Positions 20,268-27,207 of a stretch of DNA of 64,000 bases are shown here, piece by piece. The stretch lies in the NCBI GenBank assembly GCA_965238175.1, contig CBDEGZ010000003.1:2976001-3040000 (forward strand), given 5' to 3'. The notes under the pieces are model-generated. The model was not told the DNA's origin and did no database searches. It saw only the letters and a program-made list of their open reading frames with translations. Position numbers and translations under genes: made by a program. The stretch comes from Gammaproteobacteria bacterium (GTDB lineage Bacteria > Pseudomonadota > Gammaproteobacteria > CAJXQU01). Numbering within the stretch: position 1 is the first letter of the stretch; every line of letters starts with the position of its first letter.

Positions 20268-23200
20268 ATGGCGCTGAACCTGGTCGATTTTACACTTAAA
20301 AATAATCGTCTGTCGATTATCCTGACACTCGCCATTGTAGTTTGGGGATGTCTGGCTTACCTAAGTCTACCAAAGGCCGAAGATCCTGGGTTTGTTGTCC
20401 GGACTGCCATTGTTAACACTAAAATGCCCGGGGCAAGTGCTCAGCGAATAGAAGAATTAGTCACGTCTGTGATTGAAGAAGCCATTATGGAAATGCCTGA
20501 GTTAGACAATGTACAGAGTATTTCAAGAGAAGGCCTTTCATATATTACCGTCAACTTCAAGGAAAGTTACAAGGTGATGCGGCCTATATTTGATTCTCTA
20601 CGTCGAAAAATTGAAGCCGTTTCCCCTGATCTGCCGCAAGGTATACAGGGTCCTATCGTCGATGACGAATTTGGTGATGTCTTTGGTAGTCTGTTCACAC
20701 TCACCGGTGATGGTTTTAACTTAACCGAATTAGCCGATATAGCCGATGATATTCGGGATCAACTTATTGGCCTTGATTTAGTTTCAAAAGTTGAACTTTA
20801 CGGCAAACAAAATGAGGTGATCTATGTACAATATAGTAATGCACGTTTGAGCGAAATGGGGTTGAACCCTGCAATGCTTAGCGATGCGATCAGTAGTGTC
20901 AATGTTATATCACCCGGTGGTGACATCATCATTGGAGAGGAACGAATAAGTCTTGAACCAAGCGGTAATTTCTCCTCTTTGGATGATCTAAAACAAACCC
21001 TAATTCGTGATAAACAGAATAACCTTGTACAGCTCCAGGACATTGCTGATGTAACACGAGTACTAGAAGATCCGGCTACCAGTCTGGTGTATGCCAATGG
21101 GAAACCCGCAATGGTTCTCGCTATTTCAATGAATGAAGGTGGAGACATTCTCAAACTAGGCGAAGAGTTACGCGCATTTGCCAGTGACGTGCAATCATCA
21201 CTCCCACTGGGCGTAGATCTCAGAGAATCCGCATTTCAAGCAGACATTGTGGCATTAAAAATAGAAGATTTTATTTCTAGTATTTTGCAAGCAATCGTTA
21301 TTGTCTTCGTCGTACTGCTTGTTTTTCTGGGTCTACGGACAGCACTCGCTGTTGCGATATTAATCCCTTTGGCCATCTTGAGTACTTTTGCGTTTATGAC
21401 CGTGTTTGATATCACGATCAACCAGGTTTCGTTAGCCGGTTTAATCATTTCTCTCGGGTTGCTTGTTGATAATGGCATTGTTATCAACGAGTCTATAATG
21501 CTTAAAATGGAGAAAGGTAAAACAGGCATTGAAGCTGCCAGTTTGACTATTAATGAGCTTAAAATTCCTCTCCTGGTCGCTTCTCTAACAACCGTGGCCG
21601 CCTTTATGCCAATTGCATTAGCAGAGTCAGGAATAGGCGAGTTTTGTGCGGCAATTTGCTACATAGTTGCAATCTCACTGGGATCTTCATGGGTGTTTTC
21701 TGTCACCATTATTCCCGCTATTGCATCGCTATTACTAAAGGTAAAAAACACCAAGAAAAACAAATCAGATGAAACATCGCGTGGGTTATTTATTCGCCTT
21801 TATGGAAAGATAATTCAAATAGTACTTAGGTTTAGATGGGTTGCCATATTATTGGTAGTCTCTCTTTTTGGTACGGTAGGTTATGCATTAAGCCATGTCC
21901 CTGCAGTGTTTATCCCTCCCTCAGATGAGGCAATTGTTAGTGTAGAGTTAGATCTACCACTTGGCCGTGATATTGAAGTCACACGACAATTATCCGATCA
22001 GCTACAGACTACCTATGAGACCCTTAAGTACAACAGTAAAAATGACAGTGGCTTGATTACGGGTTGGACAAATTTTGTGGGTTCTAGCGCCCCAAAATTT
22101 AAACTGGGCTACAACCCCGGTGCCGGAAATCCAGCTCACGTATCCAGTATCGTGAATGTACGAAATACAGCCGCACTTGATCCAACAATTACAAAGCTAA
22201 GTGAGTACGTTGCTAATCATCACCCTGATGTAGACTTTAAAATTCAACGCTTATCGCAGGGTCCACCCGTCGCTTATCCGATACAAGTGCGCCTGAGTGG
22301 TCACAATATCAACGAACTGGAACTTCGTGCAGCCGCAATCAAGCAACAGTTAATAAACATTCCAGGTGTACTCACTATAAAAGATGACTGGGGTGTAAGA
22401 TCTAAAAAAATAGCGATCAATGTTAATCAGGAACGCGCACGTGCATCTGGCGTATCAAGCGCAGACGTCGCTGATTCATTACGGCTAAGTTTGAGTGGAA
22501 ATTCAGTCAGTGACTTTCGCGAAGGTGAAGACAGAATTCCCATTACTTTAATTACTGAAGGGATCGAGCGAAATGACCTGAGGATCATCAATGATTTAAC
22601 GATCAATTCTCAGACAGGTGAAAGTGTTAAATTAGCCCAGGTGGCGGACAACAAGGTGCAATGGTCTGCTTCAAATATTTTACGTAGAAATCGTGTCCGT
22701 ACCGTGACAATATCAGCGACATTATTCCAGCACTATACTGCGACCATGATTAATCAGACGTTTACTCCCTGGTTAGATGAGTTTACCGCTCAACTACCGC
22801 CTGGTTATTCTATAGAAATTGGTGGTGAATCAGAATCTTCTGATGATGCTAGCCAGTCTATCGTCGATAAACTACCTATAGCATTTATTTTTATCGTGCT
22901 ATTGCTGGTTGGCCAATTTAATTCACTACGTAAAGCGACCTTGATCATGTTAACTATTCCGATGGGTGTTATCGGCATGGCATGGGGATTATGGATCGCG
23001 AGTTCAACGTTTGGTTTCTTTACCATCCTCGGTCTATTGTCGCTGGCGGGAATTATTATTAATAACGCGATCGTCTTGATTGACAGTATTGATTCCTTTC
23101 GAGATCAAGACTTAAGTCCCTGGGATGCAATCGTCTCTGCCAGCGAATCAAGACTTAGACCAATATTACTCACAACGGCTACAACTTGTGGTGGCATGAT

Positions 23201-23348
23201 TCCTTTATGGCTTGGCGGAGGAATGTTTGAAACCATGGCGGTCACGATTTTCTTCGGTCTATTATTTGGCTCTGTAATAACGCTTGTAGTGGTACCTGCT
23301 TTATATGCAATTTTCTTTAAAGTCGCTGCCCCAGTTAAATCTGCTTAA
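20268..23348 (+). CDS. RND efflux permease (AcrB/AcrD/AcrF family)
   Basis: 1026 aa, PGASAQRIEELV, GLLVDNGIV, RLRPILLTT, two TM clusters. Confidence 0.95.
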   Translation: MALNLVDFTLKNNRLSIILTLAIVVWGCLAYLSLPKAEDPGFVVRTAIVNTKMPGASAQRIEELVTSVIEEAIMEMPELDNVQSISREGLSYITVNFKESYKVMRPIFDSLRRKIEAVSPDLPQGIQGPIVDDEFGDVFGSLFTLTGDGFNLTELADIADDIRDQLIGLDLVSKVELYGKQNEVIYVQYSNARLSEMGLNPAMLSDAISSVNVISPGGDIIIGEERISLEPSGNFSSLDDLKQTLIRDKQNNLVQLQDIADVTRVLEDPATSLVYANGKPAMVLAISMNEGGDILKLGEELRAFASDVQSSLPLGVDLRESAFQADIVALKIEDFISSILQAIVIVFVVLLVFLGLRTALAVAILIPLAILSTFAFMTVFDITINQVSLAGLIISLGLLVDNGIVINESIMLKMEKGKTGIEAASLTINELKIPLLVASLTTVAAFMPIALAESGIGEFCAAICYIVAISLGSSWVFSVTIIPAIASLLLKVKNTKKNKSDETSRGLFIRLYGKIIQIVLRFRWVAILLVVSLFGTVGYALSHVPAVFIPPSDEAIVSVELDLPLGRDIEVTRQLSDQLQTTYETLKYNSKNDSGLITGWTNFVGSSAPKFKLGYNPGAGNPAHVSSIVNVRNTAALDPTITKLSEYVANHHPDVDFKIQRLSQGPPVAYPIQVRLSGHNINELELRAAAIKQQLINIPGVLTIKDDWGVRSKKIAINVNQERARASGVSSADVADSLRLSLSGNSVSDFREGEDRIPITLITEGIERNDLRIINDLTINSQTGESVKLAQVADNKVQWSASNILRRNRVRTVTISATLFQHYTATMINQTFTPWLDEFTAQLPPGYSIEIGGESESSDDASQSIVDKLPIAFIFIVLLLVGQFNSLRKATLIMLTIPMGVIGMAWGLWIASSTFGFFTILGLLSLAGIIINNAIVLIDSIDSFRDQDLSPWDAIVSASESRLRPILLTTATTCGGMIPLWLGGGMFETMAVTIFFGLLFGSVITLVVVPALYAIFFKVAAPVKSA

Positions 23349-23439
23349 ATAACCTGATGTGATGGTCTCCTCCCCCTAACGGCATCTAGGTGCCATGATT
23401 GAACTGACATACACACAATCAAAAGAGGAGAAGACCAAA

Positions 23440-24453
23440 ATGAAGACTACAACAATCGGGTTAGACATAGCAAAAAACGTATTTCATGCTGTCTGCTGTA
23501 ATCAACAAGGGCGTATAATCAAAAAGAAAATGTTAAAGCGAGCGCAGGTACTCTCCTTTTTTCAATCTCAACCTCCTTGTTTAGTCGCAATAGAATCTTG
23601 TGCAACGTCACAGTATTGGGCCCGAGCGATACAACAACAGGGACATCAGGTGAAATTACTACCACCTCAGCATGTTAACGCATTTCTAATCGGCAATAAG
23701 AATGATTATAACGATGCCTTGGCCATCGCCGTTGCTGCGAAACAACCTCATTTAAAAAGTGTGGGCATTAAATCAGTTGAGCAACAAGACAACCAGGCAC
23801 AACATAAAGCAAGAGACTTAGCGGTCAGACAAAGAACCGCATTATGTAACCAAATGAGAGCGCTTGTTGCAGAATATGGCATTAGCCTTCGTCCCGGCCT
23901 AAATACCCTACGTCAATCTATCCCGTTGCTATTAAGTGATGAGAACGAACGGTTGTCCGTTACTTTCAAAAGGATACTGCGCCAGCTAAAGGAACAATGG
24001 CAATCACTTGATGCCTGTATTGCGACATTTGACCAATTGATCATTCAATCGGCAAAAAACAATGCGATTTGCCAACGCTTACAAACTATTCCAGGGTTTG
24101 GGCCGATGGTCTCGAGCGCGTATTTTAATGAAGTGGGAAACGGCGCTCATTATCACAAAGGGCGCGATGTGTCCGCCTCATTAGGACTTGTTCCACGACA
24201 GTACAGTAGTGGTGGTAAAGAGGTGCTACTGGGGATCAGTAAACGCGGCAATAAATACCTTCGTTGTTTGTTAATTCTAGGCGCGAAGGCCGTGGTATCA
24301 AGAGCCAAAACGAAAGGCGATAAACTGAGTCAATGGATTAATCGTTTAGTTGAGACGCGGGGGCATAATCGAGCGTGTGTGGCGTATGCCAACAAAATGG
24401 CAAGAATGGCCTGGGCTATAACGGTTTCTGGTGATGACTACTCACCGGCCTAA
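23440..24453 (+). CDS. IS110-family recombinase/transposase
   Basis: RuvC-like DEDD N-domain (GLDIAKNVF, IESC, KNDYNDA) and C-terminal SSGGK serine motif; GAGGAG RBS at 23425-23430 favours the ATG at 23440. Confidence 0.96.
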   Translation: MKTTTIGLDIAKNVFHAVCCNQQGRIIKKKMLKRAQVLSFFQSQPPCLVAIESCATSQYWARAIQQQGHQVKLLPPQHVNAFLIGNKNDYNDALAIAVAAKQPHLKSVGIKSVEQQDNQAQHKARDLAVRQRTALCNQMRALVAEYGISLRPGLNTLRQSIPLLLSDENERLSVTFKRILRQLKEQWQSLDACIATFDQLIIQSAKNNAICQRLQTIPGFGPMVSSAYFNEVGNGAHYHKGRDVSASLGLVPRQYSSGGKEVLLGISKRGNKYLRCLLILGAKAVVSRAKTKGDKLSQWINRLVETRGHNRACVAYANKMARMAWAITVSGDDYSPA

Positions 24454-24499
24454 ATAGAGAGAACAAATCATTTCAACGAATTGCGAAGGTAAAACTAAA

Positions 24500-24665
24500 G
24501 ATGGCATAACAGGTCAAACCAGCCTATTGAAAACCTGTCGAGCTCAGGGGTAACTAATACCGATAACCTGATAAGGAAAATAGGCGCGTAATACATCCAG
24601 GTCAGAAGTTGAAAACTTCATTGAAGGCCGTATATATGACAGCAATCCTGTCCCTGTTATCTGAA
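24500..24665 (+). ncRNA. putative bridge RNA / seekRNA of the IS1111-group element
   Basis: Closing stem ATAACAGG(24506-13)/CCTGTTAT(24653-60); stem GCCTATT/AATAGGC enclosing target-matching segments; second loop with donor-matching segments. Boundaries approximate. Confidence 0.8.
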
Positions 24666-24674
24666 TGTTTTATC

Positions 24675-24703
24675 TTGCAATACGGGAGGAGACCATATAT
24701 GAA
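24675..24703 (+). promoter_or_regulatory. -35 box of the IS circle-junction promoter (TTGCAA-N17-TATGAT completed on circularisation)
   Basis: TTGCAA at 24675-80 then exactly 17 nt; joining the right end (..TA) to the left end (TGAT..) gives TATGAT, whereas the integrated form reads TATGAA. Confidence 0.75.
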
Positions 24704-24825
24704 CTCGGGATAAAAATGACCATAAAAACATTAAAAGACAATGACCGCACTCTTTTGCACTAAAAACGTCGATTTTTTCATAGAAAACTCTCCTAAATAC
24801 AGTGTAAGAATTTTCTACTTAAAAC

Positions 24826-27207
24826 TCAGATTGTTCTTCGGGGGATTACAATTATCTTACTCGACCAAAAAATCAGTATTAATATAGTAAGAATCGTGAT
24901 TATCAGACCTTCTTTTAATAACGGCGGGAAGTATTTTAGATCAATAATGTGCTGCCCTTTGCCCAATAACAGACCTGAAAAACCAGCATTAATTTTATAA
25001 ATATCAACTGCCTCATTGTTTACTGTTGCATGCCAACCAGAATCTTTAGGAATTGATAAAAATAACATTCCATCAGCTTCTAGATTTATATTGCCGGAAA
25101 TATCATCATCAGAAAATTTCGTCATTTTCATAACATTAAGTCTTCTCGAAGGGCAAGGATCAAATTCTGTGGCAGAACAAGTTAGCCCATCAAATTTTTC
25201 TGATATAAGTTCCATATTTTGATCTATCGAGGGTAAAAATCCAAATTGGAGTAAATTATCTCTTTCAGTAATATTCTCCATAGAAAAATACTTTTCTCGA
25301 TCAAGATACTTATCGTAAACAAACCCGAAAGGTAATGCCTCAGTCCTTTTAAAAACATGAATATCTCCGATAGTTTTTAGAAATTTTGAGGTCTCAGGTA
25401 TCACCTCTTCAGTTTTGGTCAGGTGATATTTGACACTTAATAGATTTGCTAAATCAGGTCTCTGCAGGGAAGTCCATCCTAGTATATTCATGCGTAAATT
25501 TGCTGGTGCATTGGGAACAGGAGGAATATTTAATGTATCAATAAACTCGAAATATGATGGAGTATTCAAAGAATTATATGAATCCATTCCCATATAATCC
25601 TGCACAACTGAATCATTCATACTTGAAATCCAACGATTTTTTTCAACCCTAAAAAAAGTATCATCGATACTCTCAAGATACTTAATAACATCATTTGTAT
25701 AACCAAAGAGATCAATCTCCTGATTATTAAGAAGTGCTTCTTTGTCTGCTTCCATCCCTTTCGTCAAAACATTTCTTTTTCCAAAAGTGTCACTATGTTC
25801 TGATACCATTTCCACAGACAACGTCATTATCAATATGGCAAGTGCAACGTATTTAGTAAATACATTTTTTGTCAGAAAAAATAACACTGCTCCATAGACA
25901 AGAATAAAAGCGATACTTTTCCAAGTTTTTATTACGTTATATTGATATATTGCTAATTCGTTTGCATATCGATGATTGATGAAAACCAGACTAATCAACA
26001 GAATAAAAATAGTCGTAATTAATAGCTTATAATTAACCTCTCTTTTTTCAAAGATCTCTTTCAACATAGAGGCTAACAATATAAGTTCTACAAAAATTAT
26101 GTTGTATCCCCAACGATATGTCGCATATTGAAATCCATTCATAATACGTGCAAAAAATGGAAATATCAGGAATACTAATACTATAAAAATACCAACGGAT
26201 ATAACTATTTTTCGTTTTCGATCAAAAAGGATAAAAGCCTGCGGAAATGTTACTAAAAATAGTAGCCCACAATACAACTGCATTGATTCGTAATAATTAA
26301 GAAAACCTATATAGGAAGAACCGATGCCTTGTAGATTATTGGAAAACAAACGACTAAATATAGAGAAATAATAATCGTAAGAGTTAAACAGAAACTGCAT
26401 ACGAAATATGCTCATTATTCCTTCGGTCGATGTTCTTGGACTTGATTTTAAAAGGTGATATTCAGGGAAAATGAATACTGCAACTAGCCCTACTGCAAGA
26501 AAGAATATGATTATAAATTTCCCTGTCGTTCTCAGAAAAAATTTCATATCAAATCCATAATCAAAATAGAATCTAAAAAGATAATAGGTAATTACGAAAA
26601 TAAATATCTGATAAAAAAAGTATATGTTTAACAAAAGTAAGGCCTTTGTTGACAACAACAATAACCATTTTCCTTCTGACATAAACCGTTCAAGTGCTAG
26701 CAATAGTAAAGGCAAGAAAACCACACTCGAACTGAAAAAATAATGTTGTCCCCATAACATTAAGTAACCATTAAAAGCGAAAAGAAAAGAACAAATAACG
26801 GCAGGAATGGCACCTACTTTTATATATGTAAAATAAAAGTAGGTGAAAAGTGCGGATAAAATTATTTTTAATATATAAACATATACCAATAAAAATGACA
26901 CATTTTCTGGACCAGCTATGAAATAGACAAGAGAAAATGGATCATACAAAAAGGCATATAAGGTTAGTACACTTGTCCCCACACCCATCTTAAAAGACCA
27001 GAATGAGAATTCTAAATTATGGATTTGTTCGGCTAAAAAATAATAAAAACGATAGTAAGAATAAAAAGTATCACTACCAATATCTCTGAACAAAAATAAT
27101 TTATTACCCACTAAAAATGATTTGAACAATACTAAGCAGGTTAAAAAAACTGCTGTGAAAAGTAGAATTAGATATTTTGGATGATCAAGAATACTTTTAG
27201 ATTGCAA
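24826..27207 (-). CDS. YfhO-family multi-pass membrane protein (GT-C-like)
   Basis: Many TMs; C-terminal LFLSIPKDSGWHATVN...GQHIIDLKYFPP typical of YfhO. Confidence 0.8.
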   Translation of the reverse strand: MQSKSILDHPKYLILLFTAVFLTCLVLFKSFLVGNKLFLFRDIGSDTFYSYYRFYYFLAEQIHNLEFSFWSFKMGVGTSVLTLYAFLYDPFSLVYFIAGPENVSFLLVYVYILKIILSALFTYFYFTYIKVGAIPAVICSFLFAFNGYLMLWGQHYFFSSSVVFLPLLLLALERFMSEGKWLLLLSTKALLLLNIYFFYQIFIFVITYYLFRFYFDYGFDMKFFLRTTGKFIIIFFLAVGLVAVFIFPEYHLLKSSPRTSTEGIMSIFRMQFLFNSYDYYFSIFSRLFSNNLQGIGSSYIGFLNYYESMQLYCGLLFLVTFPQAFILFDRKRKIVISVGIFIVLVFLIFPFFARIMNGFQYATYRWGYNIIFVELILLASMLKEIFEKREVNYKLLITTIFILLISLVFINHRYANELAIYQYNVIKTWKSIAFILVYGAVLFFLTKNVFTKYVALAILIMTLSVEMVSEHSDTFGKRNVLTKGMEADKEALLNNQEIDLFGYTNDVIKYLESIDDTFFRVEKNRWISSMNDSVVQDYMGMDSYNSLNTPSYFEFIDTLNIPPVPNAPANLRMNILGWTSLQRPDLANLLSVKYHLTKTEEVIPETSKFLKTIGDIHVFKRTEALPFGFVYDKYLDREKYFSMENITERDNLLQFGFLPSIDQNMELISEKFDGLTCSATEFDPCPSRRLNVMKMTKFSDDDISGNINLEADGMLFLSIPKDSGWHATVNNEAVDIYKINAGFSGLLLGKGQHIIDLKYFPPLLKEGLIITILTILILIFWSSKIIVIPRRTI

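Follow-up and report, generated by a model that had tools for sequence, protein, structure and literature searches.

The IS1111 group of the IS110 family comprises insertion sequences (ISs) with a transposase of 330-350 aa carrying a GL-P----S(T)G motif, subterminal inverted repeats (IRs) of 7-17 bp and a longer non-coding region downstream of the gene, as set out where the group is described in two reports (PMC11187229; PMC11208160). The first of these describes the seekRNA elements ISEc11, ISPa11, ISKpn4 and ISPst6, and the second (Durrant et al. 2024; see also PDB 8WT6) the bispecific RNA of IS621, with its target loop and donor loop; the latter also predicts bridge RNAs in 93% of the ISfinder IS1111 elements. 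The window analysed here, by which we mean the whole stretch of 64,000 nt at 2,976,001-3,040,000 on the forward strand of contig CBDEGZ010000003.1 (Gammaproteobacteria bacterium, assembly GCA_965238175.1), contains an IS1111-group IS whose 3' non-coding region very probably encodes a bispecific guide RNA of this kind (a bridge RNA, or long seekRNA). The element had been pointed out in an earlier note made from the letters of the window.

Like the seekRNA elements of PMC11187229, the element has a two-domain recombinase of the group's length and motif, subterminal IRs and a long downstream non-coding region, and its insertions share one orientation and target a short repeated site. As described for those seekRNAs, the match to the top strand lies 5' of the match to the bottom strand and the two overlap at the insertion point; here, the segment complementary to the top strand (24538-46) precedes the one with top-strand sequence (24563-70). 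The structured region of ~160-200 nt is comparable to the seekRNA long forms of 148-172 nt given in the same report. The target is a different one, TAACC-TG-AACTCGG, although that of ISPa11, GTAGGGCG..., resembles the left targets of two relatives of the present element (L102 and L109). Where the seekRNA papers treat guide matches (PMC11187229), the matches described are to the target; here, a second loop that follows the IS ends is supported by comparison among relatives. With IS621 the element shares the bispecific RNA with its two loops and a tolerated mismatch at the commonest natural site, which in IS621 is a wobble rG:dT at position 4 (PMC11208160). Unlike in IS621, the RNA is located after the gene and not before, each loop has its guide strands in the opposite order, the subterminal repeats, at 13 bp, are long, both arms sit inside common closing helices and the core is TG rather than CT. 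Protein similarity to the solved IS621 and ISCro4 recombinases is weak (E ~2e-4; 2e-4 for IS621) and confined to the C-terminal domain. IS4321 and IS5075 are classical IS1111-group elements that insert into the terminal repeats of Tn21-type transposons. Their proteins place them in the same family, and several copies of the present element likewise lie at the edges of other mobile elements; identity to their transposases is only 35% over 98% of the length, and most of the sites used here are short imperfect palindromes with no tie to any single transposon family. As the mechanism was published in 2024 and the enzyme is already named RNA-guided by an NCBI model, the element is a new example and not a new kind of system. 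The suggestion of a 'new ortholog' thus holds for the member and not for the mechanism, and the element or a close relative might already figure in the published lists of predicted bridge RNAs or among ISfinder targets.

Judged by its sequence, the element is a member of the IS1111 group, every group-defining feature examined being present. It spans 1343 bp without either core copy, is flanked by TG on both sides and consists, in order, of an ATGTG extension, a 13-bp subterminal IR, an 83-nt leader with GAGGAG, a 337-aa open reading frame (ORF), a 246-nt non-coding region, the second IR and an ATA extension. The recombinase length falls within the range of the group, as do the 13-bp IRs, which leave terminal extensions of 5 and 3 nt. 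With 83 nt before the ATG at 23440 and 246 nt after the stop codon (24454-24699), the longer non-coding side is the downstream one. The protein carries the domains PF01548 (DEDD/RuvC-like, E = 3.6e-16) and PF02371 (C-terminal, E = 6.4e-20) and scores 302.9 bits against the NCBIfam model NF033542 'IS110 family RNA-guided transposase', for which the cut-off is 140. Residues E52, D89, D92, G249, P252 and G258 are conserved in at least 98% of 59 aligned rows; D9 (in GLD) is present and falls below this threshold through noise in the N-terminal alignment. The motif of the group reads GLVPRQYSSG (residues 249-258). These features identify the recombinase, as far as sequence can, as a full-length DEDD enzyme of the IS110/IS1111 family.

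The junctions read AAATAACC-TGA-TGTGATGG on the left (23347-23365) and GACCATATA-TGA-ACTCGGGA on the right (24691-24710). Complete copies number 24 in the genome (3.35 Mb, 40% G+C); 22 are identical and two have one substitution each. A 25th is truncated at a contig end. All the complete copies have the ORF, and they lie in different flanks. The identity of 22 of 24 copies in different surroundings argues for very recent transposition and indicates an element that is intact and was recently active. Insertion is orientation-specific, uses one short site and duplicates no more than the core, with TAACC-TG at 25 of 25 left flanks and TG-A at 24 of 24 right junctions.

The case for a guide RNA rests on a comparison of relatives. 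One genome per species was scanned, which gave 80 loci, mostly from marine Gammaproteobacteria and Desulfuromonadales, with recombinases of 49-78% amino acid identity. Both IRs could be placed in 67 of the 80; after removal of identical copies, the last 270 nt of the remaining 63 were aligned with the window (alignment A1). The scaffold is conserved throughout A1, and the only variable parts are four short stretches, which are exactly the four guides that the earlier note had proposed. A single-sequence fold of 24454-24702 (z = -2.68) contains three inner hairpins and stems, and the RNAalifold consensus and pair counts concur on two arms. Over 36 pairs, 91.7% of cells are paired, as against 84.2% in column shuffles and 31-41% in controls with slid partners; 21 of the 36 pairs show compensatory change on both sides, a number reached by none of 500 shuffles. 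The RNA is predicted from these patterns to be Y-shaped and ~200 nt long (about 24481-24680), with three stacked closing helices (P0, P1 and P2) and two arms. In P0, 79.2% of cells are paired, eight of 13 pairs changed on both sides, and the covariation is 0.269 compared with 0.134 in shuffles (0 of 500 reaching it). P1 is paired in 85.6% and P2 in 94.7% of cells, the latter with two pairs changed on both sides. All eight outer-stem pairs and all four hairpin pairs of the target arm are compensatory, with 98-99% of cells paired. The inner stem of the donor arm (GGYC/GRCC in the family) is paired in 100% of cells and includes two compensatory pairs. For the donor hairpin, the RNAalifold version was used, since in the pair counts this helix (number 8, 57% paired) is mis-registered by alignment gaps; it shows many compensatory changes. 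The helices of the + strand contain many G-U pairs (columns 143/198, for example, have UG 22, CG 22 and UA 19), which would be A-C on the other strand; this indicates that the + strand is the folding one.

Every motif named in the earlier note, junctions included, is found where it was placed. Its target loop is confirmed in full, with ATAACCTGA at 24563-71, CGAGCTCAGG at 24539-48, the hairpin GGTA/TACC at 24549-52/24558-61 and the stem GCCTATT/AATAGGC at 24522-28/24579-85. Its donor loop is likewise present (ATATATGA at 24632-39, ACATC at 24593-97, GAAGTT/AACTTC at 24605-10/24614-19), with the correction that the right-donor guide is longer than ACATC (24592-98). The 8-bp stem said to close the whole, ATAACAGG/CCTGTTAT (24506-13/24653-60), exists in the window and lacks family support: 73.2% of its cells are paired compared with a shuffled mean of 73.0% (reached by 223 of 500), and its covariation lies within that of the shuffles. 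It was dropped as a family feature in favour of P0, P1 and P2. The overall proposal of an IS1111-type bispecific guide RNA downstream of the recombinase stood up to the scaffold covariation above and to the comparisons of target and donor guides that follow. Coordinates are collected in Table 1.

Table 1. Parts of the IS and of its predicted guide RNA, in window coordinates.
Feature	Position	Strand	Remarks
Left core copy TG	23355..23356	+	left target half TAACC at 23350-23354; relatives have YG here
IS body	23357..24699	+	24 complete genomic copies, 1 more cut by contig end
Left terminal extension ATGTG, the right-donor half (RD), predicted to be read by the donor loop	23357..23361	+	guide follows variants among relatives
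Left subterminal inverted repeat ATGGTCTCCTCCC	23362..23374	+	10-16-bp IR with right end in most relatives; 5 nt from end
Recombinase gene, 337 aa, ATG 23440, GAGGAG ribosome-binding motif upstream	23440..24453	+	relatives align from residue 1-2 of start
P0 5' strand (TTGC-G-AAGG, G24485 bulged), pairs with 24673-24680	24481..24489	+	
5' strands of P1 (GATGGC, 24500-05) and P2 (ACAGG, 24509-13)	24500..24513	+	
Target-binding arm	24522..24585	+	outer stem 24522-29/24578-85, CCT/AGG clamp 24534-36/24574-76, inner hairpin 24549-52/24558-61
Right-target guide UCGAGCUCA, complementary to top strand of core + right flank	24538..24546	+	GG 24547-48 can extend pairing into left flank
Left-target guide AUAACCUG, same sequence as top strand of left flank + core, pairs with bottom strand	24563..24570	+	
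Donor-binding arm	24586..24643	+	GC/GC clamp 24586-87/24642-43, inner stem GGTC/GGCC 24600-03/24626-29, hairpin 24605-10/24614-19
Right-donor guide UACAUCC, complementary to top strand of core + left IS end (TG-ATGTG)	24592..24598	+	5/7 strict, 6/7 with wobble
Left-donor guide UAUAUAUG, same sequence as right IS end + core (CATATA-TG)	24631..24638	+	7/8 strict, 8/8 with wobble
3' strands of P2 (CCTGT, 24647-51) and P1 (GTTATC, 24656-61)	24647..24661	+	
P0 3' strand, overlaps conserved TTGCAA at 24675-80	24673..24680	+	TTGC invariant
Right subterminal inverted repeat GGGAGGAGACCAT, then extension ATA at 24697-99	24684..24696	+	3 nt from end
Right core copy TG, then right target half AACTCGG at 24702-24708	24700..24701	+	

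The guides of the target loop encode ATAACC-TG-AGCTCGA. At the copy in the window, the left-target guide matches at eight of eight positions, and TAACCTG is invariant in all 24 complete copies; the right-target guide pairs with TG-AACTCGG at eight of nine positions when rU:dG wobble is allowed, the exception being an rC:dA mismatch at 24542-43. After the core, the 24 right flanks read A in 24, A in 19 (G in three), C in 16, T in 22, C in 17 and G in 14, that is, mostly AACTCGG. The preferred target proposed earlier, ATAACCTGAGCTCG, is therefore what the guides encode, while the sites used are mostly TAACC-TG-AACTCGG with the one rC:dA mismatch. Of the reconstructed empty sites, 20 of 24 match the guide-encoded 15-mer at 11 or more positions, as do only 558 of 454,853 TG-centred positions of the genome, and the agreement is thus well beyond chance. 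Together with the left flanks, all 25 of which read TAACCTG(A), this answers a check set beforehand, namely that other copies should lie in the same kind of site. Sites that fit one half of the guide are instructive as well. The repeat TAACC-TG-ACAGTC, with the full left half and an unrelated right half, is present in 58-60 empty copies and only one occupied copy; of the TG-AACTCGG sites, eight are occupied, and two of the form AACC-TG-AACTCGGG are empty. The near absence of insertions in the half-matching repeat shows that each half of the site counts, which is what a guide of two strands would predict.

Across the relatives, the eight columns before AUAAGG were compared with the left flank and core, and the nine columns that follow AAAACCUG were reverse-complemented and compared with the core and right flank. 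Outside the core, guides match their own element's site at 9.68 of 13 positions and the sites of other elements at 3.87 (62 of 64 rows usable, the other two having a flank cut by a contig end; 58 distinct guide pairs), and none of 10,000 permutations of the site labels reached the observed sum. Allowing rG:dT and rU:dG wobble, with three of 64 rows dropped, the values are 10.31 and 5.39. In L070, L073, L089, L103 and L136, the right-target guide lies one alignment column off; the low strict scores of these rows were left uncorrected, which works against the reading. Relatives with different guides occupy correspondingly different sites, a natural counterpart of reprogramming: L061 has the site AGATC-TG-AGGTTA with the guides GAUCUG and UAACCUCA, and L062 the site TAACC-TG-AGATCG with the guide CGAUCUCA. 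It is thus supported, by the guide/target covariation that had been asked of the homologues, that the two strands of the target loop covary with each element's own flanks.

For the second loop, the comparison supports strands that follow the IS ends and the core; as the ends show little variation, this support is less firm than that for the target loop. In the left-donor guide, the core reads ACG with right ends in ...ATACG (32 elements) and ATG with ...ATATG (23 elements), with few exceptions. With wobble, the right-donor guide pairs at all seven positions in 39 of 61 elements and at six in a further 19. The left extension varies among relatives (ATGAG, ATGAA, ATGTA, ATGGA, ATGGT), and the guide follows: L081 combines an AATGAG end with the guide CUCAUUG, L087 and L104 pair 7/7, and the ATGGA and ATGGT ends are matched too. 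As relatives share both traits by descent, independent contrasts were counted on a recombinase tree, from which L087, L109, L115 and L133 (longest ORF <300 aa) were left out and in which L102 sits on a very long branch. The contrasts fall as pairing predicts for position 6 of the right-donor 7-mer (three of three for T, one of one for G) and for the core base (four to five of five), and none runs the opposite way.

The core is most likely the dinucleotide TG and not TGA, as had been proposed. In all 63 relatives, the left end starts with (A/G)ATG..., following the pattern ATG(A/T/G/C)N-ATGG, and the bases common to both junctions are YG, which assigns A23357 to the IS. The third base of TGA is ambiguous only in that A happens to come next in most of the targets here. 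A dinucleotide core is also reported for IS621 (PMC11208160), consistent with TG here. Twelve of 61 relatives have TG at the left junction and CG at the right (L086, L088, L089, L107, L113, L116, L118, L120, L123, L124, L130 and L138); in these, three of the four guide strands encode C, and the right-donor guide often has T or A there, or a wobble-capable G. Such unequal core copies may stem from heteroduplex resolution, or from a core that is read asymmetrically. Opposite the first core base, the right-donor guide of the 28 elements with a TG core has G in 17, which can only wobble with T, and C, which cannot pair, in two including the element of the window. A wider idea, which we regard as possible and somewhat doubtful, is that the IS ends in this clade of IS1111 elements are read by a second RNA loop, making these true bispecific bridge RNAs rather than target-only seekRNAs, with the first core base read asymmetrically. 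Were this so, it would point to a logic of strand exchange or excision in which each junction needs to satisfy just one half of each loop, and it would account for assays in which a short RNA is enough.

By analogy with ISEc11, ISPa11, ISKpn4 and IS621, the element would be excised as a circle in which the IS ends abut. The joined ends would place TTGCAA (24675-80) as a -35 box, followed by a 17-nt spacer and a -10 box made of TA, the core and AT (TATGAT here). Such a circle-junction promoter is plausible from the known cases; the arrangement TTGCAA-17-TA(C/T)GAT occurs in 47 of 67 relatives, and TATAAT in three. Transcription from this junction, or by read-through, would pass through the recombinase gene and the non-coding region and yield an RNA that is probably trimmed. 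The recombinase, as in the related systems, would bind this RNA. The two strands of the target arm would together specify (A)TAACC-TG-AGCTCG, the loop pairing with TAACC-TG-A(A/G)CTCG, while in the donor arm the 5' strand (24592-98) would pair with the core and left IS end and the 3' strand (24631-38) with the right IS end and core of the circle. The complex, a DEDD/serine recombinase with its RNA if the chemistry of known systems applies, would then join circle and target and exchange strands at the TG core, giving insertion in one orientation with no duplication beyond the core.

Several results weigh against this reading. Among public RNA runs, none is listed with this sequence. A scan of 23300-24800 for promoter- and terminator-like sites found no + strand promoter-like site inside the element, for which reason an internal promoter is not claimed; its two terminator-like sites are no more than shuffles yield. 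A search of 23000-25000 against Rfam 15, with E values allowed up to 1, gave no matching family. At four of the 24 insertions, only 8-10 of 15 positions match the guides, and 19 of 24 sites carry A at the second base after the core, for which the guide requires G. The sole empty site that fully fits the core guide positions, TAACC-TG-AGCTCGG at C3:393,936-393,950, is unoccupied. In the donor loop, C24598 faces the first core base and cannot pair with it, close relatives having G, U or A there, and the contrasts comprise so few events that no single sign test reaches 0.05. Further, for ISEc11 an 82-nt short RNA is reported to suffice for movement in a plasmid assay, and to do so better than the 154-nt form (PMC11187229), which suggests that the donor arm may be non-essential in this group.

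The last of these points speaks for a seekRNA-type alternative, in which only the target arm guides, the recombinase reads the ends through the subterminal IRs and the matches in the second loop are an inherited scaffold. A review scheme in which the transposase recognises the ends, the strong conservation of the subterminal repeats and the scarcity of variation at the IS ends, with donor covariation amounting to three, one and five independent contrasts, also fit it. We nevertheless consider it unlikely, since each of those contrasts agrees with donor pairing and none opposes it (the L081, L087, L104, ATGGA and ATGGT ends), the stems of the donor arm are maintained by compensatory changes, and donor-complementary loop nucleotides are reported for the IS1111 elements inspected by Durrant et al. 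(PMC11208160). It is far less probable still that the non-coding region acts as DNA, through protein-binding sites or a single-stranded fold resembling the target. The missing transcript and internal promoter would suit such a role, and as the 3' strand of P0 overlaps the likely -35 box, part of the conservation does arise at the DNA level. However, the G-U pairs of the + strand helices would be A-C mismatches on the other strand, related elements yield transposase-bound RNA from the same region (PMC11187229), and a DNA site fails to explain why the loop strands copy one DNA strand, complement the other and overlap at the core. A fossil, that is, copies left by a past spread or by duplication of host DNA with a recombinase-RNA pair that no longer functions, seems hardly credible: the guide mismatch to the commonest site, the C24598-core mismatch and the lack of listed RNA runs could be read in this way, but the copies are all identical or one base off, with intact ORFs in different flanks. 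The bispecific guide RNA thus remains the reading we strongly prefer.

RNA-guided IS110/IS1111 recombinases are under development as programmable tools for DNA insertion, and mechanistic work has been done nearly all on the IS110 group (IS621, IS622, ISCro4), so that a well-documented IS1111-group example is of use. The element offers 24 near-identical copies indicative of recent activity, 63 relatives whose guides, ends and scaffold lend themselves to comparison, and a natural map of tolerated and rejected sites, in which the left half is strict, the right half looser, one systematic rC:dA mismatch is tolerated and ~59 half-matching sites are almost never used. Its value also lies in the sequence-level support for a donor-reading loop in an IS1111 clade and in the closing helices added here. 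To its host genome the element is no more than an abundant site-specific IS, and the known working of such systems is left unchanged.

Regarding the surroundings of the target, the usual site (window 24702-24723 and other sites) is an imperfect palindrome, CTTAACCTGA-AC-TCGGGATAAG, resembling a REP-like or terminator-like short hairpin, and is found at the borders of at least two different longer repeats. Two copies of the IS are found 10 nt past the stop codon of a transposase gene of the IS982 family and three 100 nt past a gene of the IS481 family (neighbour genes at L021:2856-3791 (-) and L017:2946-3980 (-), and on C3 near 118,150 and 1,051,640), so that other ISs have part of the target repeat at their edge. 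In the Colwellia relative L062, the guide fits the IS982-side site TG-AGATCGG exactly. The abundant half-matching repeat has the form ...AAACTTAACCTGACAGTC(G/A)GTTAC... (for example at C3 5297, 11562 and 129450) and carries the left target half and core; its sole occupied instance is the copy at C3:589241, where a 353-aa ORF ends 10 nt upstream. The fully fitting, unused site at C3:393,936-393,950 has an inverted copy (393,960-395,307) beside it, whose right end is ~10 nt away.

In the window, a gene in the same orientation as the IS (20268-23348, +) encodes a 1026-aa RND-type efflux transporter; the IS sits 6 nt past its stop codon, and read-through from this gene could transcribe the element. 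Genome-wide, a co-directional ORF ends within 120 nt of 13 of the 24 copies, which was judged too weak to make read-through expression a general rule. A -35/-10 pair at TTGCGA (24481-86) was also considered and dropped, its -10 box being poor and unconserved.

Neither orphan copies of the RNA region in the genome, by DNA similarity, nor plasmid matches to the IS, in a DNA search, were found. In the contigs of three DNA runs from one sample, the IS appears as a collapsed repeat contig (~23350-24702), with no joint corresponding to either an empty site or a circle junction. The two substituted copies carry C24078T, within the recombinase gene, and A24625G (window numbering), immediately before the GGCC strand in the inner stem of the donor arm; the latter is the copy at C3:747,417-748,764 (-). 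Solo left-end fragments, two 40-bp inverted copies among them, and a degenerate relative, whose first 390 nt are 79% identical and which carries stop codons, occur at C3:1,393,274-1,393,339, 1,154,716-1,154,798, 2,897,431-2,897,503 and 2,357,911-2,358,383. Contig C1 (10,967 bp; locus L142), with 56% G+C compared with 40% for the genome and an ftsH-like gene, is probably a contig of another organism and not a plasmid of this genome. Among the relatives, L087, L109, L115 and L133 retain the RNA scaffold and matching guides with longest recombinase ORFs of 115-287 aa and are probably decaying copies.

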